From Gemmatimonadales bacterium (GTDB lineage: Bacteria > Gemmatimonadota > Gemmatimonadetes > Gemmatimonadales > GWC2-71-9): 41,231 bases of DNA. The position numbers and the translations under genes are program-made. Below are positions 2,869 through 19,966 of this stretch, piece after piece. The notes below the pieces were generated by a model. That model was not told the DNA's origin, did not search any database, and saw nothing but the letters and a program-made list of their open reading frames with translations. Positions within the stretch are counted from its first letter, which is position 1. Every line of letters begins with the position of its first letter. The stretch lies in assembly GCA_035249405.1 (NCBI GenBank), contig DATFGN010000037.1, positions 1 through 41,231 of the forward strand, given 5' to 3'.

Positions 2869-4031
2869 GAGCCGTTGTTGGTGCAACGATCCTCGCCATC
2901 ACCGCAGGTCCCCTCGTCGCGCAACGCCCATCGCGCATGCCGGTGGAAGCGAAAAACCTGGTGGTGCAAGTGCTGGCCACCGGTGGCGATGAAGAAGAGG
3001 TCGGGGCCGGGATCGTGGTCGCGGCGTCCGATCGCATCGTCATCGCTACCGCGGCCCACGTGGTCCGGACCGCCCAGCAGGGGGCCAAAGTCAGGGTCGT
3101 CTTCCAGTTCGCTCGCAACGACACAGTCGAAGCGCGCGTCGATCAGACGGACCGCGAGCTCGATTTGGCGGTGTTGAGTGTGCCGCGAGCCGGCGCCGCC
3201 ACGCAGTTCGCCTTCGACCGGCGCGGCGATCCCGGCGCGCTCGAGATCGGTGCGCTCGTCGTGCCGGTCGGCTGCCCCGAACGCGTCTGCTGGGAACCGC
3301 CGATCAGCGGCGACCGCGTGATCAGCGCCAGCGCGCGTCGCGTGCGCTTCGAGTCGTTCTTCGTGAGCCCGGGCAGCTCGGGGGGCGCGCTGTTCAACGC
3401 GCAGTGGGAAGTCGTGGGCATCGTCACCGAAAAGAACAGTCAGGACGGCGTGGCCCTCGGCATGAGCGAAGTCGCCGATCGTCTGAGGAGGTGGGGCATA
3501 CCGATGCAGCTCCGCCCTACCAGCATCCCGCGCGCCGGGTACCGCACGCGCTTCAGTCTCGTTGGCCTGGCGCCAAACTCTGGCGGCTTCCGCCAACCCG
3601 GCCGCTGGCCCAGTGGACGGTTCGCGCTGCTGTTGCGTGGCCAGGAGCGGATCGGGCTGCATGTGTCCGCAATCCGTCTCGCGCCGTGGAATCTCAAGGT
3701 CATGGGCGGCATGCTGGGCTCCAGTGTCTCGCTTCGCTCCGGTCGCTTTGGCATCGCGCCGTTCGGCGAAGTGGGGGTGGGTCGTGTGGAGGGACGGTTT
3801 CAGTCCGGGAGCTATTTCGTCCAAAGCGGGTCCGGCACGGTCGAAGTCCCCATCTGGCGGACGCTGACCAACGATGTGATCGGGTTCGGCGTTGGGGCGG
3901 ATATGGAACTGCTGGTCGTGCCCCATGTCGCGATCTCAGGGATCGTCGGACACTGGAGTTTCCGCACCGATGCGCAGCTGCCGTCCGTTCCCGCTGTCTT
4001 CTTCGGGGCTGGTCTCAAGTATGCGTTCTAG
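2865..4031 (+). CDS. trypsin-like (S1 family) serine peptidase with C-terminal OMP-beta-barrel-like domain
   Basis: ATG 2865 overlaps the kinase stop (ATGA, 2865-2868); the longest ORF starts at 2844. The N-terminus MRAVVGATILAITAGPLVAQ is signal-like. Triad contexts are TAAHVV (His), LDLAVLSV (Asp) and GSSGGALFN (Ser). The last ~170 aa alternate hydrophobic and polar residues like beta strands and end GAGLKYAF with a terminal Phe. Confidence 0.75.
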   Translation: MRAVVGATILAITAGPLVAQRPSRMPVEAKNLVVQVLATGGDEEEVGAGIVVAASDRIVIATAAHVVRTAQQGAKVRVVFQFARNDTVEARVDQTDRELDLAVLSVPRAGAATQFAFDRRGDPGALEIGALVVPVGCPERVCWEPPISGDRVISASARRVRFESFFVSPGSSGGALFNAQWEVVGIVTEKNSQDGVALGMSEVADRLRRWGIPMQLRPTSIPRAGYRTRFSLVGLAPNSGGFRQPGRWPSGRFALLLRGQERIGLHVSAIRLAPWNLKVMGGMLGSSVSLRSGRFGIAPFGEVGVGRVEGRFQSGSYFVQSGSGTVEVPIWRTLTNDVIGFGVGADMELLVVPHVAISGIVGHWSFRTDAQLPSVPAVFFGAGLKYAF

Positions 4032-4178
4032 CAAGCATCTCCCAGTGACGCCTCTCGTACGGCGGCTGGAAGCCGCCGCTCGGCGCCTGCGGCGACGCGT
4101 CGAACGCAGCCTTCAGGCCGCGAACAATCGCACCGGACGTTGTTCAGGGTTTTCCTGGAGCTGAGGCACTCTCCGTTC

Positions 4179-6332
4179 ATGACTAGCCGATCGCACTTCC
4201 TAAGGTCCGCAGGGGCTCTGATTCTCGGCGCGCTCCTGACCACCTGCACGAACGAGCTCGCGCCCACCGGCGCCGTAACTCTGAGCCTCGCCAAGGCCGC
4301 GGCCTGGCCGGACACACTGGCGGTGGCGGAGATCGCCACCGTTGCTGTTTCTGCCACGGACCCCGATCAACAGATCGTTACCGCCGTCACCCTGGAGTGG
4401 GCTTCCACTGACTCCTCGGTGGTGACCGTCACGAGCGCGGCGAGCGACCTGCACGCCATCGTGACCAGCCGGCGCCCCGGCGCGGCCACGATCGTGGTGA
4501 CAGTCGCGCAGAACGGGTTCGAACCGGTCGAGCTGCGCGCGCCGGTAGTGGTCGATCCACGGGGCGCCGATTCGCTGCTCTCGGTCGGCGACGTCGACAC
4601 GATCGGCCTGTCCCTGCAGCGCATCGACCCGAGCTTCCTGATCGGCGCCACCGTCACGTGGGGCTCGAGCGATCCCGGGGTCCTCGCGGTCTCCGCCTTG
4701 GCCGCGGATTCCACCCGGGCCGTGATCACGGGGCGGTTCAGCGGCTCCGCGCAGGTCACCGCGACGATCCAGAACCAGTTGGGTCGCACGGAGTTTCAGT
4801 TGCCGGTGGTCGTGCTCGCGCTTCAGATCGTCGAGACGCCGTCGTGGTCGCCGCTGGTAGCCCTCACGGACACGGCCACGTTCGCAGTCCTGGTGCAGGA
4901 CGCGTTGGGCCGGCCCAGGCCGGGGGTCAAAGTGACGTGGCATTCCACCAACGAGACGGCGTTCTCGGTCGACTCGACGGGCTTCGTGCTGGGCAAGGCC
5001 CGAGGCGGTGGCGAGTTGGTGGCCAGCGTCGGAGCGGCGCCGTTCCAGGTCGTCGAGCATCGCGCGCCGCTGCAGATCGTCGAACGGTGGCGCACCGTGA
5101 GCGCCGGGATGGATCACACCTGTGCGATCACGGCGCTCGATGGCACGGGCTTCTGCTGGGGCAGCAATGATTTCGGCAAGCTCGGCACCGGACTCACGGA
5201 AGCCGTGTTGCCGCAATCATCCCGCCCGCGGACGGTCGCGACGGCGCACCGGTTCAACGAGCTCCAGGCCGGTAATGCCCACACCTGTGGGGAAGAAGCG
5301 CAGGTCAACCTGCTCTGCTGGGGTTCGCGGATACATGGCGCGCTGGGCGACGCCCCCTGTGGGGGTGGGTCGATTGGCTGCGGGGGGTTCGATGCGTCCG
5401 AAGTTCCGGTGACGGTCATCGCGGACGGCAATCTGGACACCGCGCAGTTGCGCATCGAGCAGCTGCTCGTCGGCGGCACCTACACCTGCATCCTGGCCCG
5501 TGCGCGGTTCGGCTTTATCAGCCGCGTCCGGCGCATGCGCTGCTGGGGAACCCACAGCGCCAATGATCCCATCGACGGCGTCACGTTCGACTCGACGGCC
5601 GCGGCGACCGTCCCGCTCGCCCCAGGCCCGTTCGCGGGCCAAACCGACGACTTCGTCGAAGCCACGGCCGGTGGCGAGCATGTCTGCGCCGTGCCGTCGG
5701 TTCTCTATCTCAGCTTCCGCGTCATCTGCATGGGGATGAATTTCGGAGGAGCGCTGGGCTACGGGCCGCTGGAGTCTTCGTCCTACAATCCGGTTTACAG
5801 TCACCCCGATGGCTTCAAGACGCCGGTCGGCTATGCGGACACCTCTGGGGACGCGATTGGTGAAGGGATTCCGCTGTCAGGGATCGCCGCGGGAGGTGGT
5901 CACACGTGCGCGTTCGACGCCCTGGGTGTGCTGTGTTGGGGGTCGAATGCCAGCGGACAATTGGGACAGCCGGCCTTCGGGTTCAACGGTCATGGATACC
6001 CGCTCCGGGCGTCGGTCGCGGTGACGCTGGTGTCGCTCGTCGCCGGCGGCGAGCACACCTGCGGTCTCACGGCGGCGGGAGCCGCCTATTGCTGGGGGTC
6101 GAATTCGAACGGCCAGCTCGGCAACGGCAGCATCGGGGGAACGAATTCCGTCGCGGCGCCGGTGGGCGGTGGCCTCACCTTTGTCGCCTTGAGTGCCGGG
6201 GGCTCGCACACCTGCGGCGTGACGCCCGGTGGCGCGATCTATTGCTGGGGTGCGAACGCGTCCGGACAGCTCGGTGACGGTACGCTGATCGACCGCTCGG
6301 TCCCCACTCGGGTCGCGGAGTCGCCGCAGTGA
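4179..6332 (+). CDS. Big_2 (bacterial Ig-like) + RCC1-repeat beta-propeller lipoprotein, paralog 1
   Basis: Start taken at ATG 4179; the longest ORF begins at TTG 4140. The N-terminus ALILGALLTTC is lipobox-like. Big_2-like segments include VTLEWASTDSSVVTVTS..GAATIVVTV and VTWGSSDPGVLAV. The C-terminal half has repeated HTCA/HTCG ... CWGSNxxGQLG RCC1 units. Confidence 0.85.
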   Translation: MTSRSHFLRSAGALILGALLTTCTNELAPTGAVTLSLAKAAAWPDTLAVAEIATVAVSATDPDQQIVTAVTLEWASTDSSVVTVTSAASDLHAIVTSRRPGAATIVVTVAQNGFEPVELRAPVVVDPRGADSLLSVGDVDTIGLSLQRIDPSFLIGATVTWGSSDPGVLAVSALAADSTRAVITGRFSGSAQVTATIQNQLGRTEFQLPVVVLALQIVETPSWSPLVALTDTATFAVLVQDALGRPRPGVKVTWHSTNETAFSVDSTGFVLGKARGGGELVASVGAAPFQVVEHRAPLQIVERWRTVSAGMDHTCAITALDGTGFCWGSNDFGKLGTGLTEAVLPQSSRPRTVATAHRFNELQAGNAHTCGEEAQVNLLCWGSRIHGALGDAPCGGGSIGCGGFDASEVPVTVIADGNLDTAQLRIEQLLVGGTYTCILARARFGFISRVRRMRCWGTHSANDPIDGVTFDSTAAATVPLAPGPFAGQTDDFVEATAGGEHVCAVPSVLYLSFRVICMGMNFGGALGYGPLESSSYNPVYSHPDGFKTPVGYADTSGDAIGEGIPLSGIAAGGGHTCAFDALGVLCWGSNASGQLGQPAFGFNGHGYPLRASVAVTLVSLVAGGEHTCGLTAAGAAYCWGSNSNGQLGNGSIGGTNSVAAPVGGGLTFVALSAGGSHTCGVTPGGAIYCWGANASGQLGDGTLIDRSVPTRVAESPQ

Positions 6333-8421: not shown

Positions 8422-8712
8422 TCAGGGTAAGAACCAATCCCTCGCCAGATCTCGCCATTCTGGATTCATCGAGCGAATCAAGGCGAGCTTCTTCCATCGC
8501 GACCATCTCTTGATCTGCTTCTCACGGGCGATTGCCGCCCGTACTTCGCTGAACGACTCATAGTAGACGAGTCGCGCAATGTTGTATTGTTTGGTGAACC
8601 CGTTGTGGACTTTGGAACGATGCTCATAAGTGCGTCGTTGCAAGTTGTTCGTGACCCCCGTGTAGAGCGCGCGATAGCGACTGGAAAGAATGTAGACGAA
8701 GTAGGTTTTCAC
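8422..8712 (-). CDS. GIY-YIG nuclease family protein (UPF0213-like, stand-alone)
   Basis: MKTYFVYILSSRYRALYTGVTNNLQRRTYEH carries the GIY/YIG-type motifs. The conserved R and E context (AIAREKQIKRW) follows. The 96-aa size is typical of stand-alone members. Confidence 0.9.
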   Translation of the reverse strand: MKTYFVYILSSRYRALYTGVTNNLQRRTYEHRSKVHNGFTKQYNIARLVYYESFSEVRAAIAREKQIKRWSRWKKLALIRSMNPEWRDLARDWFLP

Positions 8713-9212: not shown

Positions 9213-9803
9213 CTACTGCTTGACCCAGGTGGATCGCAGGTCCCAGGTCACGGAGCGGACCAGGCGGTTCACCAGCTGCCCGTACGCCTCATCGGGATCG
9301 CGGGCGGAGAACACCGGCACTCCTCCCACGATCGTCAGGTCCCCGACCTTTTCGGTGCGGGACGCGCTGGCGCGCCACAGCGTGCCGCCGGTCTTCGTAG
9401 AGCGCAGTTCCACGGACAACTCCGCCGAAAGCGTTGCCTCCACGCGGGCCAGCGCGAATGAAAGCAAGCCGCCCTTCGGCTTTACGTCGGATACCCGGAG
9501 TCGCCCCAGGAACACGACGGGGACGCCGCGCGCCCCGGCGAGCGCTGCGCCTGAGTCGGCGGGCTGGAACCGCTGCACCTCGATGCCCCGTTGCGCGGCG
9601 AGCACGGACTCCTCAAAGCGGGTGGTGACCAGTTCGTCCAGTCCTCCCCGGGCACCCTCGACACTGAACTTGACCAGTCCCACGCTGCCATAGGGGACCA
9701 GATCGAGTTGCGGCGGGACGAGGACACGATGCGACGCGCAAGCGGTGCCGGCCAAGGAAGCCAGGACGAGAGCGGTTGCGGGCGATAACGGTGATCGCGG
9801 CAT
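9213..9803 (-). CDS. hypothetical lipoprotein
   Basis: N-terminus MPRSPLSPATALVLASLAGTAC combines a signal peptide with the lipobox LAGTAC. The coding bias is good. No family recognised. Confidence 0.7.
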   Translation of the reverse strand: MPRSPLSPATALVLASLAGTACASHRVLVPPQLDLVPYGSVGLVKFSVEGARGGLDELVTTRFEESVLAAQRGIEVQRFQPADSGAALAGARGVPVVFLGRLRVSDVKPKGGLLSFALARVEATLSAELSVELRSTKTGGTLWRASASRTEKVGDLTIVGGVPVFSARDPDEAYGQLVNRLVRSVTWDLRSTWVKQ

Positions 9804-9832
9804 GCGGGCTACATTGGCTCAGGTTCGGTCCA

Positions 9833-12247
9833 ATGTCCACTACCTTGCCGCGCTGCCTCCTCGTTCTCTTCGTCCTCGTGGGCGACGCCGCCGCTCAGGC
9901 GCCTCCCCCCGTCGCCCGGCGCGACACGCAACACATCTCCGCCCTGCTCACCATCAGCGGCGGCATCAGCCTCGGCTCCTACGAAGCCGGAGTGAACTGG
10001 GGGCTGCTCGAGGTCTTCAAGCTCACCGCCCGCGATTCGCTGCGCCGCGCCTGGAACCTGCCGCGCTACGAATTGAAAGCCATGGCGGGAGCCTCGGCCG
10101 GCAACATCAACGGCTTCCTCGCTGCCCTCGAATGGTGCCGCACCCGGGAGCCCGTCGCTCCCGAACAGAGTCTTCTGTGGAAGATCTGGGTGCGCACCGG
10201 ATTCGATCAGCTGTTCCCCCTCGAACGCTACAACCAGCCCGACTCGACCCAGGCGCTGTTCAGCCGGCGCTACTTCCAACGGGTGTTATTCGATACCGTG
10301 CGCGCCGCGATGCGCGACCTGCCTTCATCGGATGCCCTGGACGGCTGCAACATTCCCGTCGGCGTCACCATCACCAAGCTCACGCCCGGCGAGATCTCGA
10401 TCTCGCGCGGCATCACGGCGGTGACGCAACGTTTCGCGACGGTGGTGGTGGTGAATCGGCAGGGCAATGCGGTCCGGTTCCGGGCGCCGCCCGGCGAGCT
10501 GATCGGCAACAGCCGGCTCGGCGCGCTGCTGTTGTTACCGGATTGCGAGGGTGCCATCGAGCCCAACGACGTCTTCTCGCTGATCGAAGCGTCGTCAGCG
10601 TTTCCCGGTGCCTTCTCGCCGGTCTCCCTGCGCCACCAGTCGCGGCCGGGGACAGGATGCGGCTCCGCGCCCCCCTTGGGCGATAGTGCGCTGTTCTCCG
10701 ACGGCGGCCTGTTCGACAACAATCCCATCGACCTCGTGGCGGGGATCTATACCGACGCGATCTGGATGAACCGCGAGCGACCCGACCCCAACGCCCTGCT
10801 CGTATTCATCGACCCCGAAGCGCTGCGCGGCCGGCTCGCGCGGGTCGAGAAGCAACGGGCGCAGCCGGCCACCGGTGGCATCTCCGCACTGATGGACCTG
10901 TTCGCGGGCGCCGTGCCCGCCGCCAGGCAGTACGAGCTGCAGGCCTTCGGGCGGCTCCTCGCCCGGGCTCCCCAGGTATTCCAACGGGACAATATCGACG
11001 TCACCAATCGCCGCTTCGTCGTCGTCGGGCAACAGTTGGGCGCGTTCGCCGCGTTCCTGGGGCAGCCGTTTCGCGAATACGACTTCTATGTCGGCGTCTA
11101 CGATGCCCTCGCTTTCATCGCCCGCGAAGGCTGCCGCACGACCCAGGGCGTGGATTCGACCTGCCAGGCCGGCCGGTTGCAAACCCTCGTGGAAACGTCG
11201 CAACTCAACCTCGGCGCAAGCAGTTTCCCGCGCGAAATGCTCCGCGAGCTGTATCAGCGTGAGTACGCCGACAGCACCGCGAAGCCCGACAGTCACCGCG
11301 ACGTACTGCTCCGTCCATTACTGCTCCGTGCTCTGTTAGACGCTCACCTCGCCCAGGACCAGGAGAAACCGTTCGACAACGCGATCTGTCGCGGCGACGC
11401 CGTCAGTCGTCTCCTCTGCCGCGATGGCTTTCGCGACATCCTGGGTCGCGTCGCAGCCGATTCGGCGATTCACGCCCTCATCGACTCGGCCCGGCGACAA
11501 CCGCGCCCCGAGTGCGAGCCCGAGAATTGGCTCGAGTCGCCGGCCCGGTGTGACGCGACTACGAGCTTCCTGGCGTTCGTCGACAATCCCGAACGGTTCA
11601 TGGCCAGCCAGATCGGCCTCATGCTGCACCAGCTGTGGCGGGTCGAGCAGGCCCGCCGGCAGGCCGGGGTGACGGCGTGGACCAATGTCGCGACCCTGAG
11701 CGAGGCCCTGTACCAGTCGGGCATCGGGTATCGCTACCGCCGCGGCTTCGACGCCAACACCTCGTCTGTGCCGAGGGGGTCGGGACGAGGCTGGATCGCG
11801 ACGCTCGTTCCCAACTACGCGACGGTCAGTCTCCTGAGCTCTGGGTTCGAGATCGGGTACCGGCCCACTGTGCACCTCGGCCGATCGCTCGCTCTTGGCC
11901 TGACCGCTTCGCCACTCCACGTGACCGGCCACCCCGCCACGCAAGTCGACCGGGTGCACTGGGTGATGGGACCGGCGCTGCACTGGAAGCGCTCCACCGC
12001 CATCTGGTCCGGGCTGGAAACCGGGGTCGAGTACTTCGGGCACTGGCGTCGCCGCCCGGCCGGGAGTTCCAATGCCACGGTTTGGGCGGTGCCCGTCACC
12101 GCCTACCTGCTCGCCGACAAGCTGCGCATCGGCGTGCGCCTGCTGCCCGGCAACAATTCCGCTATACACGGCGGCAAGAAGATCGCGCTGACCTTGGGGC
12201 TCTCGGACCTGAATGGGCTGGTGTACTGGATGCTGCGGAGGTCGTGA
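9833..12247 (+). CDS. patatin-like phospholipase family protein with signal peptide and long C-terminal extension
   Basis: Start taken at ATG 9833 (MSTTLPRCLLVLFVLVGDAAAQA); the longest ORF starts at 9776. Motifs are the oxyanion-hole-like SGGISLGSYEAG, the GxSxG nucleophile elbow GASAGNING, and the catalytic Asp context FSDGGLFDNNPID. About 450 further residues follow, and the last ~170 are beta-strand-like. Confidence 0.9.
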   Translation: MSTTLPRCLLVLFVLVGDAAAQAPPPVARRDTQHISALLTISGGISLGSYEAGVNWGLLEVFKLTARDSLRRAWNLPRYELKAMAGASAGNINGFLAALEWCRTREPVAPEQSLLWKIWVRTGFDQLFPLERYNQPDSTQALFSRRYFQRVLFDTVRAAMRDLPSSDALDGCNIPVGVTITKLTPGEISISRGITAVTQRFATVVVVNRQGNAVRFRAPPGELIGNSRLGALLLLPDCEGAIEPNDVFSLIEASSAFPGAFSPVSLRHQSRPGTGCGSAPPLGDSALFSDGGLFDNNPIDLVAGIYTDAIWMNRERPDPNALLVFIDPEALRGRLARVEKQRAQPATGGISALMDLFAGAVPAARQYELQAFGRLLARAPQVFQRDNIDVTNRRFVVVGQQLGAFAAFLGQPFREYDFYVGVYDALAFIAREGCRTTQGVDSTCQAGRLQTLVETSQLNLGASSFPREMLRELYQREYADSTAKPDSHRDVLLRPLLLRALLDAHLAQDQEKPFDNAICRGDAVSRLLCRDGFRDILGRVAADSAIHALIDSARRQPRPECEPENWLESPARCDATTSFLAFVDNPERFMASQIGLMLHQLWRVEQARRQAGVTAWTNVATLSEALYQSGIGYRYRRGFDANTSSVPRGSGRGWIATLVPNYATVSLLSSGFEIGYRPTVHLGRSLALGLTASPLHVTGHPATQVDRVHWVMGPALHWKRSTAIWSGLETGVEYFGHWRRRPAGSSNATVWAVPVTAYLLADKLRIGVRLLPGNNSAIHGGKKIALTLGLSDLNGLVYWMLRRS

Positions 12248-12336
12248 CGAGCCGGCCGACAGCCCTTCCTGTTCATGAGACATGAAACCGACCAGATTCA
12301 CTTGAAGCTCGTCCGTCACCGAACCCCAGGGGATTC

Positions 12337-12612
12337 ATGGATCAGGATCAATTGCACCAGCGCCTGGCTCAGCTCCACGCTGAGCTCATCGCCGCCAAGC
12401 CGGTCGATGTCGAGACCCGCGACCGCCTGGAAGTGCTCGCCCGGGACATCCGCGCCGTGCTCGATGCGAACCCGAAACCGGCGTCGGTTGAGCCGTATCA
12501 GGCCGTGGGGACCAAACTGAAGGAAGCCGTCGCCGGCTTCGAGGCCTCACATCCCCAATTGAGCAAGACGATCGAGAACGTGATCGAGACGCTGTCGCTG
12601 TACAATCTCTGA
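12337..12612 (+). CDS. DUF4404 family protein
   Basis: The 91-aa product reads QLHQRLAQLHAEL...VDVETRDRLEVLARDIRAVL...LKEAVAGFEASHPQLSKTIENVIETL, matching the DUF4404 pattern as I recall it. GGGGA lies 4 nt upstream of the ATG. Confidence 0.75.
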   Translation: MDQDQLHQRLAQLHAELIAAKPVDVETRDRLEVLARDIRAVLDANPKPASVEPYQAVGTKLKEAVAGFEASHPQLSKTIENVIETLSLYNL

Positions 12613-12692
12613 CCTGCTCGCCCCCTCGCAGCTATGACGGATGCGCTCACCAGTCCTACCCAGTCGGCTCGAGATCGGAGTTGCCTGCCAGG

Positions 12693-12818
12693 CTGCGCAT
12701 CGGCGTTCGCGTGCTCCCCGGCAACAATTCCGCCGTACACGGCGGCAAGAGGATCGCGCTCACGTTGGGGCTCTCGGACCTGAACGGGCTGGTCTACTGG
12801 ATGTTGCGGAAGTCGTGA
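12693..12818 (+). pseudogene. displaced copy of the last 41 codons plus stop of a patatin-like gene (no start, no upstream ORF)
   Basis: 12692-12824 aligns without gaps to 12121-12253, the 3' end of the patatin gene, at about 90% identity. In frame it reads LRIGVRVLPGNNSAVHGGKRIALTLGLSDLNGLVYWMLRKS*, against LRIGVRLLPGNNSAIHGGKKIALTLGLSDLNGLVYWMLRRS* in the intact gene. Confidence 0.8.
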
Positions 12819-12849
12819 CGAGCCCTGGCGCCGTCCATTGCGCGCCTTG

Positions 12850-13452
12850 CTACGCGGGGCTGAACGGCAGTTGCGCCAGCCTCTTGACCCTTCTCCCAGT
12901 GATCCGCAGGCCTACTTGGATGACGTTGTCCGTATAGTTGTCCTCCCTGACACGGCGCCGCCCGTTCCGTCGTTTTGGATTAGTCTCGGCCTGAAGAACG
13001 TAGTCACCATCAGGCAGGTCGGTGATGTCGACCCATTGGCAATCGAGATCCCGCGAGTAGAGGTCGTACCAGCCGGCAGATACGCCCTGGTTGTCACAGT
13101 TGAACCGCTTGCGCTTGCGAGCTACCGGACCCTTCCAACGAGTGTCTTCAAGGCAGAAGCCTTGCTTTTGGCCGCGTTTGCGCCCGCCACCGGATCCAAA
13201 GACTGTGTACTGGTTGAAACCCTTGAGGTGGTAGTGCTTGTGACAATCCGAGTACTCAAACCAGCGAGGGCGCTGTGTTGGGTCGCCGATGTGGAGGTCT
13301 TTGTTCCCCGCGTTCCAGACTCTGTAGTCGAAGCGCAAAAGCTTCCGTTTACCGGGCTTCGTGCATCTCTCCTTGACCGCACAATGTTTCTTCTCAAAAG
13401 TGCGAACCTGGATCTTGAACCGCCCAATCAGAGGAATCAAGTTCACGCCCAT
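12850..13452 (-). CDS. lysyl oxidase-like (LOX catalytic domain, copper amine oxidase with LTQ cofactor) protein
   Basis: Collinear with the animal LOX catalytic domain as I recall it. Matching blocks are LLRFDYRVWNAGNKD, CHKHYH (Cu-binding HxHxH), GQKQGFCLEDT (LTQ Lys context), GWYDLY (LTQ Tyr context), DCQWVDITDLPDGDY and DNYTDNV. GC is visibly lower than in the flanks. Confidence 0.85.
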   Translation of the reverse strand: MGVNLIPLIGRFKIQVRTFEKKHCAVKERCTKPGKRKLLRFDYRVWNAGNKDLHIGDPTQRPRWFEYSDCHKHYHLKGFNQYTVFGSGGGRKRGQKQGFCLEDTRWKGPVARKRKRFNCDNQGVSAGWYDLYSRDLDCQWVDITDLPDGDYVLQAETNPKRRNGRRRVREDNYTDNVIQVGLRITGRRVKRLAQLPFSPA

Positions 13453-13525
13453 TGGTTAACCCAGCCTCTCGTCTACTGTCGCTACGCCGCGCGTGTTCGC
13501 GCCATACCGCCTTGGGCTCCGCACG

Positions 13526-14056
13526 TCAGTAGAGCACTCCGAGTTGAATCGTCACGAACCGTGTCACCGGCTTCGATTGCACCTGGTGCAGGTCGAGCCC
13601 GAACTCCAGCCTGATCACACCGACGGATACTTGCTCACCGACACCGATGTTGAGCCCGGACTTCGCGGGTCCCGACTTTGGCCAATAGACGCCAGGGCCG
13701 GCCTGCACATATGGTCGTGGCCCGGCGCCTGGTGCGACAACCTGCAGGTTCACGGAAGCGTTAATCCAACGCGGATGCTCGATCCCCGTAGCAATCTCCG
13801 CAGTGAATTGGTTCAAACCCACCAACAGCTTCGCGTACAAGGCCGCACCAGTGGGAAGGCGCTTTTGTAGGCGATAACTCAGGTCCACGTCGACGTGGAT
13901 GTTGGCGTCACTGAGTGAATCGAGAATCCCCAGCGGGTGCGCCGAGCCGATGTGAAAACTGGAACTGACCCTTTTCACGCGCGCCTGCGCCTGCGTCAGC
14001 CCTCCAAAGCCGGCAACAACCAGTAGGACGAGGAGACTGCGGGCTGCGGTCTTCAT
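13526..14056 (-). CDS. small outer-membrane beta-barrel protein (OmpW/OmpX-size class)
   Basis: Start taken at ATG 14056 (MKTAARSLLVLLVVAGFGGLTQAQA signal peptide); a GTG lies at 14062. The sequence shows an alternating beta-strand pattern and ends ...IQLGVLY with an aromatic terminal residue. It lies 73 nt upstream of the LOX-like gene on the same strand. Confidence 0.7.
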   Translation of the reverse strand: MKTAARSLLVLLVVAGFGGLTQAQARVKRVSSSFHIGSAHPLGILDSLSDANIHVDVDLSYRLQKRLPTGAALYAKLLVGLNQFTAEIATGIEHPRWINASVNLQVVAPGAGPRPYVQAGPGVYWPKSGPAKSGLNIGVGEQVSVGVIRLEFGLDLHQVQSKPVTRFVTIQLGVLY

Positions 14057-14260
14057 GGCCACGCCTCGGTAGTGGAGTTGTTAGGCATGCTAGCCGAGGG
14101 TGGTCAATTGGCGGTCAATCGATCCCGCCTACGTACGTATCTCGATCATCGATTGTTCGCGACGTGAGACGACGTGTCTCAGGGTTGACCACATCGCTCG
14201 CATCTTACGCGTCCAGTTTTTCGCGACGGCGCAGTCGTATCGATTGGAGAGGAGGCACGT

Positions 14261-14593
14261 ATGTCCGGCTGGTTCGAGCTGAAGCCCGCAGTAGGCGGTC
14301 AGTTCATGTTCAATCTCAAAGCAGGGAACGGGAAGGTCATCTTGACGAGCGAGCTGTACAAGGCGAAGCAAAGCGCGAAAAAGGGTATCACCTCGGTCAA
14401 GAACAACTCCCCCAACGATGGTCGCTACGATCGTCAGACCGCGAGCAATGGCGAGAAGTACTTCGAGCTCAAGGCTGGCAGCGGTGAATCCGTGGGGATC
14501 AGCGAGCTGTACACCGGCCCGTCTGGTATGGAGAAGGGCATCGCCGCCGTGAAGAAGGCGGCACCCGGTGGAACGATCAAAGACCGTACATAG
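14261..14593 (+). CDS. YegP family protein (two DUF1508 repeats)
   Basis: Strong SD GGAGAGGAGG lies upstream of the ATG. Two repeats are present: FELKPAVGGQFMFNLKAGNGKVILTSELYKAKQSAKKGITSV and YFELKAGSGESVGISELYTGPSGMEKGIAAV. Confidence 0.9.
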   Translation: MSGWFELKPAVGGQFMFNLKAGNGKVILTSELYKAKQSAKKGITSVKNNSPNDGRYDRQTASNGEKYFELKAGSGESVGISELYTGPSGMEKGIAAVKKAAPGGTIKDRT

Positions 14594-14633: not shown

Positions 14634-14687
14634 ACGGGGTCTCGCCCCTAATTGGACTCGGCGTCATCCACCAGCCTGCTGGTCAGC

Positions 14688-17006
14688 TTAGCGCGCAGAC
14701 TCCGAGAACCCGATCCGTCGGTAGACCTGCTGCATCCGCGGATCGCTTTGCAACAACTGGAACGCGGGATAGCGCTTACAATAGATGAGAATGCTGTCGC
14801 GGTCCTCACAGGCCCGCTCGAGCAGCTGGAACGCTTCATCCATGCGACCCACCAAGCCTGCCGCTAGTGCCAACGTCGCACTCTGGATGTACTCGCGCCG
14901 TGCGCGAGCTGTGAGCTCCTCATATATGGCCACCACCTCGGCGCTCTTTCCCAACACGCGGAAGCAAGCCGCTAACGCCGCGAGCGTCGAGGGATGACGG
15001 CCCGATGCCGCCGCCGCCACTTCCAAGGCGGCCATCGCTTCCTCGGTCCGGCCGAGTTGATTGTAGACCACGCCCAGATGGAGATAGGTGAGGAGCATCG
15101 CCGGGCCGAGCTCGGTGGCCCGCTTGAGCGGCGTGAGCGCCTCCTCATAGCGCCCGGCGCCGATCAGCACGCCGGCGAGCTGCGTCACCGGCAACTGCGC
15201 CAGCGGATCGAGCTCCACGGCGCGCCGGGCGTGCATCAGTGCTTCGTCAAAGCGGCCCTCGACCAGGCAGAGATACAACGCGAGCCGGTAATGGGCGGCG
15301 ACGTAGCGCGGACTCAGCTCGATGGCCCGGCGCAGCTCGCGCTCGGCTCCGGGCCACTCCCAGTCGAAGACGAACTTCAGCTCCCCGAGGGCACAATGCG
15401 CCTCCGCCAGATCGGGAGCCAGCTCGAGGGCCCGCTCGATCGCCGCCCGGACTTGGGGCAGGGTCTTGGTGGGCGGGACCATGCCGTACTCCGTCAGCAG
15501 CGTGTAGGCATCAGCCAGGCCCGCATACGCCAGGGCGTAGTTCGGATCGAGTGCCAGCGCCCGGCTGAAACATTCCACGGCCTGCTTCAGCCCCAGGCCC
15601 CGCTGCGCCCAGAAATACCGCCCCTTCAGATAGAGATGGTAGGCGTCCAGATTCGCGGTGGCCGGCGTGACCACCGCCGAGCCGGCACCACGGGTGACCT
15701 GCAGCCGCTCGGCGATCGCTCTCCCGATCTCGTCCTGGATCGCGAAAACGTCCGTCATTTCGCGATCGTAGCGCTCCGACCAGAGATGGTAACCGTCGGC
15801 GACTTTGATGAGCTGGGCCGTGACCCGGAGTTTGCTGCCCGCCTTCCGCACGCTGCCTTCCAGGACGTTGGCGACCTTCAGTCTGGTCCCGACCTCGGCT
15901 AGATCGATTGCCTTGCCGCGGAAACAGAATGACGACGTCCGCGACGCCACGTGCAGCCCGGGGAGCTGGGCGAGCGCGTTGATGATTTCCTCGGTGATCC
16001 CGTCGCTGAAGTACTCGGTGTCGGGATCCGTACTCATGTTGGCAAATGGCAGGACGGCGATGGAGTCCTCGTCGACGTCGTCCGCCTCCGTCTCGTCGTG
16101 GGCCACGAGCGCCGCCGCGAACTGAATTGGGGTCGCAAAGCGATCCGCCGGCGCTTTCTCGAGTGCCCGCAGAATTGCCCGTTCGACGCCGACGGGGACT
16201 GTCGCCCGAACCGCGCGCAGCGGCGGCACGGGCTCGAGCAGCTGGCGGGCGAGAACGGTCTGTGCCGACTTGCCCAGGAACGGCGGCTCGCCCGCGAGCA
16301 TCTCGTACAACACGCACGCTAGGCTATAGGTGTCGCTGCGGCCGTCGATTGGGAGGTCCGTCTCGGACTGTTCCGGGCTCATGTAACCCGGCGTTCCGAT
16401 CCGGACCCGTGTGCCCGTCAATTGGTCGCCTCCGGCCGTCGAAATCGCCCGCGCGATGCCGAAGTCGCTGACCACCGCGTGCCCCGCTTGAAACAGGATG
16501 TTTTCCGGCTTGATGTCGCGGTGCACGACATCGTGGCTATGGGCATAGCTCAAGGCGTCGGCCACCTGGCGGGTGATCTCAAGGGCGTCGCTCAACGGGA
16601 GCTGCTTCTCGCGCTCGAGGCGCCCCCGTAACGTGTCACCCTCCACATACGGCATCACGTAGTACAGGTAGTCGTCGGCCTTGCCCGAGTCGTGCAGCGC
16701 CAGGATGTGAGGATGGTTCAGCCGGGCGGCGGTCTCGATCTCGCGGAGAAACCGCTCCGTGCCGATCTGTGCGGCGAGCTCGGGCAGCAAAACCTTGATG
16801 GCGACCGGGCGACGGTGCTTCAGGTCCTGCGCCAGATACACGGTGGCCATTCCACCGCGGCCGAGCTCACGCTCGACCGTGTAACGGTCTGCGAGGGCTG
16901 CGTGGAGGGAAGCGCGAAGATCGGGCGTATTCGCTCGTGAGTAGCGACGACCGAACTTACGGGCTCTGGTTAGGCACCGCCAGTTTGGATGGTATACACC
17001 GCCCAC
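14688..17006 (-). CDS. Ser/Thr protein kinase with TolB-N-like domain and C-terminal TPR repeats
   Basis: GTG 17006 is the only in-frame start upstream of the kinase domain. Kinase motifs are GRGGMATVYLA, VAIKVL, HRDIKPENI, DFG and MSPEQ. The middle block IAVLPFANMS...YFSDGITEEII...LEGSVRKAGSKLRVTAQLI is TolB-N-like. The C-terminal part has many TPR-like A/L/Y helices. Confidence 0.9.
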   Translation of the reverse strand: MGGVYHPNWRCLTRARKFGRRYSRANTPDLRASLHAALADRYTVERELGRGGMATVYLAQDLKHRRPVAIKVLLPELAAQIGTERFLREIETAARLNHPHILALHDSGKADDYLYYVMPYVEGDTLRGRLEREKQLPLSDALEITRQVADALSYAHSHDVVHRDIKPENILFQAGHAVVSDFGIARAISTAGGDQLTGTRVRIGTPGYMSPEQSETDLPIDGRSDTYSLACVLYEMLAGEPPFLGKSAQTVLARQLLEPVPPLRAVRATVPVGVERAILRALEKAPADRFATPIQFAAALVAHDETEADDVDEDSIAVLPFANMSTDPDTEYFSDGITEEIINALAQLPGLHVASRTSSFCFRGKAIDLAEVGTRLKVANVLEGSVRKAGSKLRVTAQLIKVADGYHLWSERYDREMTDVFAIQDEIGRAIAERLQVTRGAGSAVVTPATANLDAYHLYLKGRYFWAQRGLGLKQAVECFSRALALDPNYALAYAGLADAYTLLTEYGMVPPTKTLPQVRAAIERALELAPDLAEAHCALGELKFVFDWEWPGAERELRRAIELSPRYVAAHYRLALYLCLVEGRFDEALMHARRAVELDPLAQLPVTQLAGVLIGAGRYEEALTPLKRATELGPAMLLTYLHLGVVYNQLGRTEEAMAALEVAAAASGRHPSTLAALAACFRVLGKSAEVVAIYEELTARARREYIQSATLALAAGLVGRMDEAFQLLERACEDRDSILIYCKRYPAFQLLQSDPRMQQVYRRIGFSESAR

Positions 17007-17161
17007 GCTGGTGCCTCGGCGCCGAGCCCGGGAACTCTCATGGGTGAACGTTCGCCGATGTCATGGGATCGCTCGTGCAGCAGTGGCATCCTTGTGCGGT
17101 CTTCGCCGGGTGATAGCTTAGGCTCCCTCCTGCAACATCCCCACCTGAGATTGGAGACATT

Positions 17162-17605
17162 ATGAACCGTCGCATCGCAGCAGGCTTGGCCGCCCTGGCG
17201 CTCGCGTTTCCGCTCCCCGTATTGGCGCAGGCCGGCGCAACCGACCTTCAGAGCCAGATCGCAAAAATGGACCAGGCCTGGCAGACGGCTTACAACGCGG
17301 GGGACGCGGCCGGGCTCGCCGCCCTGTACGCGGAAGATGCTAAAGTCATGGCCCCCGGCGGCGCGGCGGTCTCCGGCCGAGCAGATATCCAGGCCCTGTT
17401 TACGAAGGATATCGCCCGGGGCAGCAAGAATGCCCTGACGACCACGGAAGTGTTTGGTGGCGGCGACTACGCTATCGCCGTGGGTGGCTGGGTGGAAACC
17501 GGCGCCGACGGCGCGCATAAGGACCACGGGTCGTACGTGACGATCTACAAGAAGGTGGGTAATGACTGGAAGATTTACCGTGACACGTGGAACAGCAGCA
17601 TGTAG
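17162..17605 (+). CDS. secreted SnoaL-like / DUF4440 (NTF2-fold) protein
   Basis: SD GGAGA lies 4 nt upstream of the ATG. Signal peptide is MNRRIAAGLAALALAFPLPVLAQA. The blocks WQTAYNAGDAAGLAALYAEDAKVMAP and ...YVTIYKKVGNDWKIYRDTWN are typical of DUF4440/SnoaL-like proteins. Confidence 0.8.
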   Translation: MNRRIAAGLAALALAFPLPVLAQAGATDLQSQIAKMDQAWQTAYNAGDAAGLAALYAEDAKVMAPGGAAVSGRADIQALFTKDIARGSKNALTTTEVFGGGDYAIAVGGWVETGADGAHKDHGSYVTIYKKVGNDWKIYRDTWNSSM

Positions 17606-17626
17606 AAGTAGCACTGCCACTTCAGG

Positions 17627-17662
17627 GAGCCGGGGCTCATTGTCCCGGCTCTCGTCGTTTCT
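17627..17662 (+). terminator. candidate intrinsic terminator after the SnoaL-like gene
   Basis: GAGCCGGG-gctcattgt-CCCGGCTC has an 8-bp stem. It is followed by the T-containing tail TCGTCGTTTCT. Confidence 0.5.
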
Positions 17663-17764
17663 AGGCCTTCATCATTTCGCCCAACGCCCTCACCGACCCG
17701 CTCCTTGTGCGAGCCGGTGCCGGCGGGCAACTTGCCATGCCGCGATGCACCCGTTCCCCTCGCG

Positions 17765-19966
17765 ATGATCGATCTGCAGGAGCTCCGCGCCGCGCTCGCG
17801 CCGGACTACGTCATCGAGCGCGAGCTGGGCCGCGGCGGCATGGCCACCGTGTACCTCGCCCACGAAAGCAAGCACGATCGGCGCGTCGCCATCAAAGTGA
17901 TGCGCCAGGAGATCACCGCTGAGCTCGGCGACGATCGGTTCCTGCGCGAGATCCGCATCGCGGCCCGGCTCTCTCACCCGAACATCGTGCCGCTGCTGGC
18001 TTCGGGAGCAGCGGACTCGGCCCTCTACTATATCATGCCGTTCATCGAGGGGGATTCGCTGCGCGCTCGCCTGGACCGCGAGGGCCGCCTTTCCATCCCC
18101 GCGACGATCCGCATCGCCCGGCAGGTCGCCGCCGCCCTCACCTACGCCCACGCACAAGGTGTGGTGCACCGCGACATCAAGCCGGAAAACATCATGCTCA
18201 CGGGCGACGCCGCCGTGGTCGCCGATTTCGGCATCGCGACGGCCCTCCAGGAGGCGGGCTCGCCCCGGCTCACCCAGACCGGCGTGAGTATCGGCACTCC
18301 GATCTACATGAGCCCCGAGCAGACGACCGGAACCGTGGATGGCCGCAGCGACGTGTACTCACTCGCCTGTGTCGTGTTCGAGATGCTCACCAGTCAACCC
18401 CCGTTCACCGGACCGACTGCGCTGGCGATCATGATGCGGCACGCCACCGAGCCGGTGCCCTCGCTGCAGTCGATTCGCTCGGAAGTCCCGGTCGGCATGG
18501 GGCGGGCACTCGGCCGAGCCCTGAGCAAGATGCCGGCCGATCGGTTCGCCACGCCGGACGAGTTCGTCGCGGCGCTCGAATCGCCGGACGCGACGCACGC
18601 GCCGCCCAGCCCGAACACCGTGGACTCGATCGCGGTCCTGCCCTTCAAAGACCTGAGCCGCGAGCAGGACCAGGCGTATCTCTGCGAAGGGATCGCCGAG
18701 GAGCTGCGCGATGCCCTCATGCGAATGGGCTCGCTGCGCGTCGCTTCGCGACACCTGGACGTGCGCGAGGGCGGGCGGCGACTGGACGTGCGCAGCATCC
18801 TCGAGGGGAGCGTGCGGGTGGCCGGCGACCGGCTCCGCATCTCCGTCACGCTCTCGAGCGTCGAGACCGGCTTCCAGCTCTGGAGCGAGCGCTACGACGA
18901 GGCGATGACCGATGTGTTTCAGGTCCAGGACGACATCGCCCGGCGCGTCGTGGCTCGGCTGCTCCCCGACGCTGACCGCGGCGGCGCCCCGGTCGTCGCA
19001 CCCGGCACCGCCGATCTCGAGGCGTATCGGGCGTACCTGCGGGGCCGCCATTTCGCGCAGCGCCGTACCGCAGCAGATCTAGAGAAAGCGATCGAGTCTT
19101 ATGAAGCCGCGCTGGCCCGCGAGCCCGGCTTCGCGCTTGCCGCCGCCGGCCTGGCGGATACCTGGTTCGTCCTGCCGGTCTACGGGGCGCTGGCACCCGA
19201 TGCCGCGATGCCCAAAGCCAAAGGAGCGATTGAGCGTGCCATGACGCCGGGCCGGGAGAGCGCCGAGGCGCTGGCCGTCCTGGGGTCGATCCGCGCCGTC
19301 TACGAGTGGGACTGGGCCGGCGCGGAGACCGATTTCCGGCGCGCCCTTTCGCTCAGCCCCGGGAATCCGATGGTCCTGCATCGCTACGCGGTGAACTGCC
19401 TGCTGCCGCTCGGACGTTTCGCCGAGGGGCTCGCACGCCTGGAAGAGGCGCTGGAGCGCGACCCCATGTCGCTGCTCGCGGCTACGAGCCTCGGGCTGGT
19501 GCACTACCTCGAACGACGGACGGCCGCGGCCGTGTCGGCCTACCACGGCGTGCTCGAGCTCGATCCCGGTTTCGGGCTGGCGCGCTATCTCCTGGGCGTG
19601 GCGCTGTTGGAAACCGCGACACCCGCCGACGCCGTACCCGTACTCGAAGCCGCCTGCGCCGCAGGACGCAGCGCCGAGTCCGTCGCCGCTCTTGCTGTCG
19701 CCTTCGCGACGGTCGAGCGCACTGAAGACGCCGAACGACTACTCGCAGAGCTCGAGGGTCTGGCGACCACGCGCTACGTGTCACCGGTATTGCTTGCCCA
19801 AGCCCAGTTGGCGCTGCGACGGCCGGAGTTGGCATTGGATCAGCTGGAGCGCGCTTGCGAGCGGCGCGCCTCGGAGCTGGCGTGGCTCGCCGTCCGCCCG
19901 ACCTGGGCTCCGCTGCGCGGCGCTCCCCGATTCCAGGATCTGCTGCGTCGCGTGAAACTCGCGTGA
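17765..19966 (+). CDS. Ser/Thr protein kinase with TolB-N-like domain and TPR repeats (paralog of 14688..17006)
   Basis: Start taken at ATG 17765 (MIDLQELRAALAPDYVIERELGRGGMATVYLA); the longest ORF starts at 17705. Motifs are HRDIKPENI, DFG and MSPEQ. The TolB-N-like block is IAVLPFKDLS...LEGSVRVAGDRLRISVTL. The C-terminus has TPR-like repeats. Confidence 0.9.
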   Translation: MIDLQELRAALAPDYVIERELGRGGMATVYLAHESKHDRRVAIKVMRQEITAELGDDRFLREIRIAARLSHPNIVPLLASGAADSALYYIMPFIEGDSLRARLDREGRLSIPATIRIARQVAAALTYAHAQGVVHRDIKPENIMLTGDAAVVADFGIATALQEAGSPRLTQTGVSIGTPIYMSPEQTTGTVDGRSDVYSLACVVFEMLTSQPPFTGPTALAIMMRHATEPVPSLQSIRSEVPVGMGRALGRALSKMPADRFATPDEFVAALESPDATHAPPSPNTVDSIAVLPFKDLSREQDQAYLCEGIAEELRDALMRMGSLRVASRHLDVREGGRRLDVRSILEGSVRVAGDRLRISVTLSSVETGFQLWSERYDEAMTDVFQVQDDIARRVVARLLPDADRGGAPVVAPGTADLEAYRAYLRGRHFAQRRTAADLEKAIESYEAALAREPGFALAAAGLADTWFVLPVYGALAPDAAMPKAKGAIERAMTPGRESAEALAVLGSIRAVYEWDWAGAETDFRRALSLSPGNPMVLHRYAVNCLLPLGRFAEGLARLEEALERDPMSLLAATSLGLVHYLERRTAAAVSAYHGVLELDPGFGLARYLLGVALLETATPADAVPVLEAACAAGRSAESVAALAVAFATVERTEDAERLLAELEGLATTRYVSPVLLAQAQLALRRPELALDQLERACERRASELAWLAVRPTWAPLRGAPRFQDLLRRVKLA

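Follow-up and report, generated by a model that had tools for sequence, protein, structure and literature searches.

A leaderless, polycationic lysyl-oxidase-family protein from an uncultured Gemmatimonadales bacterium, encoded in a stretch of DNA that is missing from a close relative

Lysyl-oxidase (LOX) family proteins of bacteria have been known since 2015, when they were reported with Gemmatimonadetes named among their sources, in LOX-only architectures 'with or without signal peptide', with conserved histidines and lysyl-tyrosylquinone (LTQ) residues, a patchy distribution and probable horizontal transfers (Grau-Bové et al., 2015; PMC4448552). The archaeal HTU-LOX of Haloterrigena turkmenica, produced as a recombinant protein and refolded with copper, is an active, BAPN-sensitive amine oxidase of relaxed specificity, which supports activity in prokaryotic members of the family, and its native role has been called 'cryptic' (Pestov et al., 2019; PMC6452851). 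In human LOXL2, the precursors of the LTQ cofactor are K653 and Y689 (PMC9694262). The protein described here, encoded in a metagenome-assembled genome of an uncultured Gemmatimonadales bacterium and already carrying the NCBI product name 'lysyl oxidase family protein', is in this respect a real, but largely ordinary find. What the present analysis adds is a leaderless clade, a polycationic minimal subclade, purifying selection on the latter and a relative that is devoid of the gene. The window, as used in the following, is the whole stretch of 41,231 nucleotides that was analysed.

The gene, an open reading frame with an ATG start codon, is situated as follows:

12850 to 13452, minus strand: LOX-family coding sequence, 200 amino acids, catalytic domain only, leaderless, pI 10.1 (open reading frame, PF01186, 5ZE3 match, AlphaFold2 and Foldseek, pI and charge)

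In a Pfam search, its product matched PF01186 (Lysyl_oxidase) with an E-value of 6.2e-35 and 121.1 bits, the curated gathering cutoff being 20.4 bits, over profile positions 44-200 of 204, and in a sequence search of the PDB the best match and only real relative was human LOXL2 (5ZE3, E 8e-30), with 40% identity across the core; NCBIfam held no model matching the protein. An earlier note on this DNA had described a block-by-block likeness to the metazoan LOX catalytic domain and had suggested the PF01186 search; the significance of the profile match and the agreement of both searches bear it out. Profile positions 1-43 lie outside the Pfam match and are covered solely by structural superposition. 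The AlphaFold2 model, built with 108 homologues (pLDDT 94.6, pTM 0.89), retrieved 5ZE3 as top match when compared with the PDB by Foldseek (E 8e-15, TM 0.79), over approximately 211 columns that comprise the whole protein, with the runner-up reaching a TM of just 0.30. As the model superposes whole on 5ZE3, the 200 residues are predicted to represent the complete catalytic domain, including the N-terminal ~30 residues beyond the Pfam alignment, in line with the earlier reading of a catalytic domain on its own. By its sequence and predicted fold, the window LOX belongs to the copper lysyl-oxidase family as an intact member that consists of the catalytic domain only.

The residues on which catalysis is expected to depend have been placed by alignment with LOXL2:

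13228 to 13242, minus strand: codons of H71-K72-H73-Y74-H75, the copper-binding HxHxH, aligned to LOXL2 HRHYH, with the codons read directly
13165 to 13167, minus strand: codon of K96, the LTQ lysine, aligned to the Lys of LOXL2 GHKASFCLEDT
13057 to 13059, minus strand: codon of Y132, the LTQ tyrosine, aligned to the Tyr of LOXL2 CWDMY

In the alignment with 5ZE3, C70-H71-K72-H73-Y74-H75 corresponds to CHRHYH, G94-Q-K96-Q-G-F-C100-LEDT to GHKASFCLEDT and GWYDLY132 to GCWDMY, the D137-CQWVDITD motif is common to both proteins, and the spacing from K96 to Y132 is, with 36 residues counted on this alignment, equal to that of K653 and Y689. The HxHxH motif shows no variation among 18 sequences and is conserved to at least 90% in 108 homologues, K96 and Y132 are invariant or nearly so in the same alignments, and the complete HHHKY set is retained in 210 of 213 homologues, namely in 47 of 47 leaderless and in 163 of 166 N-extended ones. 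An intact copper site (CHKHYH), an intact LTQ lysine (GQKQGFCLEDT) and tyrosine (GWYDLY) and the DCQWVDITD block had all been recognized beforehand by eye, and each has kept its place in the LOXL2 register.

The protein contains six cysteines (24, 30, 70, 100, 119 and 138), which are located at the positions of three LOXL2 disulfides, assigned to pairs according to the disulfide pairing of LOXL2; the cysteines of two out of the five LOXL2 pairs are missing. Across the 213 homologues, C24 and C70 are both present in 193 and both absent from 20, with no mixed case, C30 and C138 are both present in 207, both absent from 4 and mixed in 2, and C100 and C119 occur together in every case. At the level of sequence, such paired gain and loss is the signature expected of real LOXL2-type disulfides. 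That leaderless members keep these cysteines would argue for folding or function outside the reducing cytoplasm.

The window LOX thus resembles LOXL2 in predicted fold, HxHxH motif, LTQ Lys/Tyr spacing, DCQWVDITD motif and three disulfide-pair positions, but lacks a signal peptide, SRCR domains and a propeptide, possesses a His-to-Lys loop that is two residues shorter, and is distinguished by basic loop insertions and a pI of about 10. With the homologues of the 2015 survey (PMC4448552) it shares the simple LOX-domain-only architecture, its own place being in the short polycationic subclade, which comprises four clusters. HTU-LOX (PMC6452851) is likewise a prokaryotic LOX-domain enzyme, but has a hydrophobic N-terminal signal region, whereas the window LOX begins at the fold itself. 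The attribute 'secreted', which characterizes the classical animal and the Sec- or Tat-exported forms, does not apply to the window LOX and is not defining for prokaryotic members.

Several observations concur in that the leader is truly absent. An in-frame TAA is found two codons 5' of the ATG, the orthologues on contigs L003 and L009 also have in-frame stops 2-7 codons upstream of their start, the N-terminus has no basic n-region and no uncharged run longer than 10 residues, and residues 5-19 form a core beta-strand in the AlphaFold2 model (pLDDT 95-98). Unlike LOX, the neighbouring OMP and patatin genes encode clear leaders, as judged by a heuristic. In homologues with a signal peptide or lipobox, the equivalent of MGVNLIPLIG (...PDLxxD...; NVVPIVGNL in Acidimicrobiia) directly follows the leader. 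The approximately 30 closest clusters (46-88% identity) all start with MG[VA]NL.P and the more distant ones nearly all have leaders; in total, 47 among 213 usable homologues are leaderless, the MG[VA]NL start occurs in about 47 clusters, and the leaderless members are spread across unrelated phyla. The leaderless start of the window LOX, noticed earlier as the want of an obvious secretion signal, is therefore genuine and marks a clade. Other leaderless members carry diverse C-terminal additions such as a tandem ~75-aa domain without Pfam family, propeller-like repeats and VWA domains.

Within the leaderless proteins, the short subclade consists of four clusters (P0001-P0004) of 200-202 aa and 75-88% mutual identity, which begin and end at the same positions and have a +LxxLPFxP tail in common. 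The subclade is strongly cationic, with 21% Lys+Arg and a pI of about 10 (9.8-10.4, with 39-42 Lys+Arg, in the four clusters), the pI of most secreted LOX forms being 4-6, and its loops contain basic insertions, RKRKR and a five-residue insert in NPKRRNGRRRV. A C-terminal accessory domain is absent, the window protein stopping about 10 residues past the LOX domain. Pairwise dN/dS ratios among the four short orthologues amount to 0.10-0.26, so that purifying selection acts on the short form, in contrast to what a decaying fragment would show. The subclade was not found among the best 80 of at least 540 loci in GTDB species-representative genomes, where the best match was 48% identical.

The closest longer relatives, leaderless proteins of 345 aa (e.g. 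P0008 and P0029), share with the window LOX the MG[VA]NL.P start, 50-55% identity and the same catalytic and cysteine residues, but differ by two copies of an uncharacterized ~75-aa domain of beta-beta-beta-alpha-beta type and by LOX domains that are neutral to acidic (pI 4.4-7.5 as compared with 10.1). In P0005-P0030 (e.g. L008 5437-6480 and L007 8001-9032), this C-terminal domain occurs twice, with the pattern W+VVDG.HW.LDFG....A.KA..IIK.Y....CFVGRP. Pfam contains no family for it, and the full-length model of P0008 (pLDDT 89.7) matched, when compared with the PDB, solely 5ZE3, via the LOX domain; the tandem domain is predicted to pack on the LOX domain (pTM 0.87). The genes of the long forms have Bil-like, primase-helicase (DUF927/DUF3854), EEP-nuclease and patatin genes as neighbours. 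More generally, leaderless LOX genes are repeatedly found on unrelated contigs near genes of lipase/phospholipase type (patatin, DUF900) and EEP-nuclease/phosphatase genes, a patatin gene being located near LOX in the window as well as in L008. Examples are:

L008, 8712 to 12407: patatin gene
L008, 6531 to 7547: DUF900 gene
L008, 1577 to 2563: Exo_endo_phos gene
L098, 7326 to 8102: Exo_endo_phos gene
Window, 9776 to 12247: patatin gene

This recurrence could be due to chance or could reflect an effector-like gene set.

The site of the gene differs from that of a close relative, contig L092. The features involved are:

12248 to 13522, no strand assigned: 1,275-nt stretch missing from L092, containing LOX, a DUF4404 gene and an orphan 3' fragment of patatin (blastn break points)
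12689 to 12824, plus strand: orphan copy of the final 136 nt of the patatin-like gene, to which it is 90% identical (direct repeat D1)
13453 to 13478, minus strand: 26-nt 5' leader travelling with LOX (homology with L009/L010 begins exactly here)
12832 to 12849, minus strand: 18-nt 3' tail travelling with LOX (homology with L009/L010 ends at 12832)
13526 to 14062, minus strand: gene native to the site, its 178-aa product being a secreted protein of the small OMP beta-barrel family (homologues with PF13505; L092 orthologue; leader heuristic)

In L092, the gene order is DUF1508, OMP (p176), 33 nt and patatin, with neither LOX nor DUF4404, and the blastn break points equate L092rc 2808 with window 12247 and L092rc 2842 with window 13523, a 33-nt spacer thus standing where the window has 1,275 nt. 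The true 3' end of the patatin-like gene (823 aa) is the first repeat copy at 12118-12253, while the orphan copy, which would encode ...LRIGVRVLPGNNSAVHGGKRIALTLGLSDLNGLVYWMLRKS*, ends 7 nt from the LOX unit, so that the two copies flank the DUF4404 gene (12337 to 12612) on both sides. Both 136-nt copies are about 85% identical to the patatin end of L092 and neither is clearly the original. The orphan copy marks a recombination scar.

The LOX copy in L009/L010 is 89% identical and has in common with the window only the segment 12832-13478, that is, the coding sequence with 26 nt upstream and 18 nt downstream, in flanks that are unrelated to the window and on a host contig of 57% GC; with gene and short margins alone being shared, LOX moves as a gene-sized unit. 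In the upstream alignment of the four orthologues, conservation is confined to the last ~26-30 nt and to the closest copy. The 26-nt leader includes GAGAGG at 13465-13470, 12 nt before the ATG, a putative ribosome-binding site. The neighbourhoods of the close orthologues are all different, with GNAT and MFS genes and a HepT/MNT pair in L003, DUF1508 and DruA/HATPase genes in L006, and a 5'-nucleotidase and methyltransferases, or MarR, in L009/L010. The ends at 12832 and 13478 showed only short, chance-level matches in a search for terminal repeats, whether inverted or direct, and for a target-site duplication, no integrase or transposase adjoins LOX, a tRNA scan gave no tRNA and hence no tRNA-linked island, and an Rfam scan of the whole window gave nothing.

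Base composition has less to say on transfer. With 56.7% GC versus 66.3% for the window, LOX ranks in the bottom 0.4% of all 603-nt stretches there, and the lower GC that had been noted earlier is real. The flanks, previously put at about 70% or more, are in fact at 58-67% in the immediate vicinity, the OMP and DUF1508 genes being low as well (60% and 58%), and the range of 43-65% given for individual 60-nt lines becomes 45-68% on recounting ruler-aligned lines. GC3 is 0.71 for LOX and 0.70 for the native OMP gene. Low GC being common to the native neighbours OMP and DUF1508, composition by itself argues only weakly for transfer. The LOX-less relative is, at the level of sequence comparison, the stronger evidence for a transfer, although the difference could equally have arisen by deletion in the relative.

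Taken as a whole, the locus is probably best explained by a leaderless basic LOX-family enzyme, a Cu/LTQ amine oxidase, that has arrived by transfer or recombination. By homology with LOXL2 and HTU-LOX, Cu(II) would be bound through H71, H73 and H75, K96 and Y132 would be self-processed into the LTQ cofactor, and primary amines (peptidyl-lysine, or amines in free or polymeric form) would be oxidized to aldehydes with the release of NH3 and H2O2. The gene would have reached the site or its vicinity by horizontal transfer or recombination within the stretch missing from the close relative, and read-through from the upstream OMP gene may account for its transcription. The substrate or a partner may be anionic and the enzyme may act outside the reducing cytoplasm. 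Points against this explanation are the Pfam match that begins only at profile position 44, the two missing LOXL2 disulfide pairs, the lack of a promoter-like site in 12600-14400, the GC3 shared with the native OMP gene, a possible deletion in the relative, and the difficulty of seeing how a leaderless protein dependent on copper and disulfides would reach an oxidizing compartment. A clade of about 47 clusters keeps every catalytic and disulfide residue without a leader peptide, and a minimal, highly basic LOX of 200 aa moves as a single gene between unrelated genomes. Such a minimal LOX is a small, attractive target both for expression and for studies of how bacterial LTQ enzymes mature and localize, and the gain-or-loss comparison with the close relative offers a natural setting for functional comparison.

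A different, rather unlikely reading is that the enzyme acts off the cell envelope, either in the cytoplasm on an anionic polymer-bound target (proteins of the nucleoid or associated with nucleic acids, polyanions) or, after release, as a mobile antagonistic or defence factor that would kill by producing H2O2 or aldehyde. The short polycationic leaderless subclade would then constitute a mobile single-gene module, its basic surface steering a Cu/LTQ oxidase to an anionic target, inside the cell or following non-classical release, instead of serving as a cross-linker of envelope or matrix, a proposal to which we give a low probability; candidates for the target would be nucleic-acid-associated proteins, polyanionic envelope polymers or the surface of another cell. 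Consistent with this are the missing leader, the pI of about 10 with clade-specific basic loops and the travelling as a gene-sized unit, and the presence of orthologues and leaderless relatives in variable islands with toxin-antitoxin, Druantia-like, Bil-like, methyltransferase and mobile-element genes, although a location in islands is expected of any horizontally acquired cargo. PADLOC and PHROGs, however, had no match for LOX, and no relatives were found in IMG/VR viral contigs. The retained disulfide cysteines argue against a function in the reducing cytoplasm, and bacteria are not generally known to possess cytoplasmic cuproenzymes, which counts against a cytoplasmic LOX. The leaderless, putative amine oxidase outlined above remains the preferred reading.

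The missing export route could in principle be supplied by the upstream gene. LOX lies 73 nt downstream of the OMP gene on the same strand, and the position and the small OMP-barrel label given in the earlier note both stand: the OMP gene product, itself without Pfam match, has a Sec-type leader, and several of its homologues match PF13505 (OMP_b-brl). If the two worked together as a pair or operon, the OMP or its leader would serve to export the leaderless oxidase or to anchor it, much as the Streptomyces tyrosinase MelC2 reportedly hitch-hikes on MelC1 for export. The common strand, the short gap with no terminator-like site in between and the similar GC3 of about 0.70 in both genes are compatible with such a pair. 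Nevertheless, an 88%-identical OMP orthologue is located at the same site of L092 beside patatin without LOX, which makes the adjacency incidental and does away with the implied link, LOX orthologues of 75-87% identity have no OMP neighbour in other contigs, homology with the closest LOX copy ends 26 nt before the ATG, and a twin-arginine motif is missing from the OMP leader. The LOX-less relative thus largely refutes the pair, which we consider very improbable. In the scans of 12600-14400, no promoter-like site was recognized, including upstream of LOX, and the single terminator-like hit was inside the coding sequence, on the wrong strand and no more than chance. DUF1508 (YegP-like; phrog_1422) is located divergently upstream of LOX in two of four short-clade contexts (window 14261-14593, plus strand; L006 9640-9831); native to the window site and present in L092 without LOX, it was treated as coincidental and rejected as a partner.

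It is similarly far-fetched that LOX is a decaying, non-functional fragment which has lost a signal peptide and/or C-terminal domains. The size of the closest longer relatives, about 345 aa, the missing leader, the position beside a recombination scar and the lack of a promoter-like site would fit such a decay, but start and end are kept in four clusters of 75-88% identity at a dN/dS of 0.10-0.26, the entire fold is predicted at high confidence with all catalytic and disulfide residues kept, and the leaderless start is common to about 47 clusters.

The family is widespread in prokaryotes. GTDB species-representative genomes contain at least 540 LOX-encoding loci in many phyla, with Myxococcota most frequent among the best 80 of these, which also include Actinomycetota, Acidobacteriota, Chloroflexota, Bacteroidota, Ignavibacteriota, Saccharimonadales, Binatia, Methylomirabilota and others. 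Searched exhaustively, 1.84 billion representatives yielded 3,839 clusters at 50% identity with E ≤ 1e-3 and 244 with E ≤ 1e-30 from all sources. With these numbers, and with Gemmatimonadetes and leaderless forms already published (PMC4448552, PMC6452851), the earlier statement of only sporadic prokaryotic homologues understates the distribution. In the neighbour-joining order, which includes one eukaryotic fragment, the short clade has the leaderless long forms and two membrane-anchored proteins as its neighbours. That the gene was recently acquired from an animal or another eukaryote, as might be suggested by LOX being best known from Metazoa and by the 40% identity of the core to human LOXL2, is scarcely credible, as the closest relatives are prokaryotic leaderless proteins of 46-88% identity, LOXL2 comes 102nd of 106 when ranked by identity to the query, and at least 540 prokaryotic loci hold relatives, the lone eukaryotic fragment being a weak test of deep history.

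Other differences and genes in the vicinity may be mentioned. A second presence/absence difference concerns L092rc 3968-5581, where approximately 1.6 kb with three small genes (87, 237 and 59 aa) lie between DUF1508 and a Ser/Thr kinase gene, as compared with 59 nt in the window (14647-14706). Two presence/absence differences within 2 kb make this part of the genome a hotspot for gene turnover. Up to a distance of about 8 kb from LOX, the window encodes several paralogous Ser/Thr kinase and TPR genes (approximately 14688-19966) and a DUF4135 (LanM-type dehydratase-like) gene. A GIY-YIG open reading frame of 96 aa at 8422-8712 on the minus strand (PF01541, E 5e-13) falls within the stretch that is second lowest in GC in the window (about 56%) and is situated in a 760-nt gap that holds no gene in public calls.
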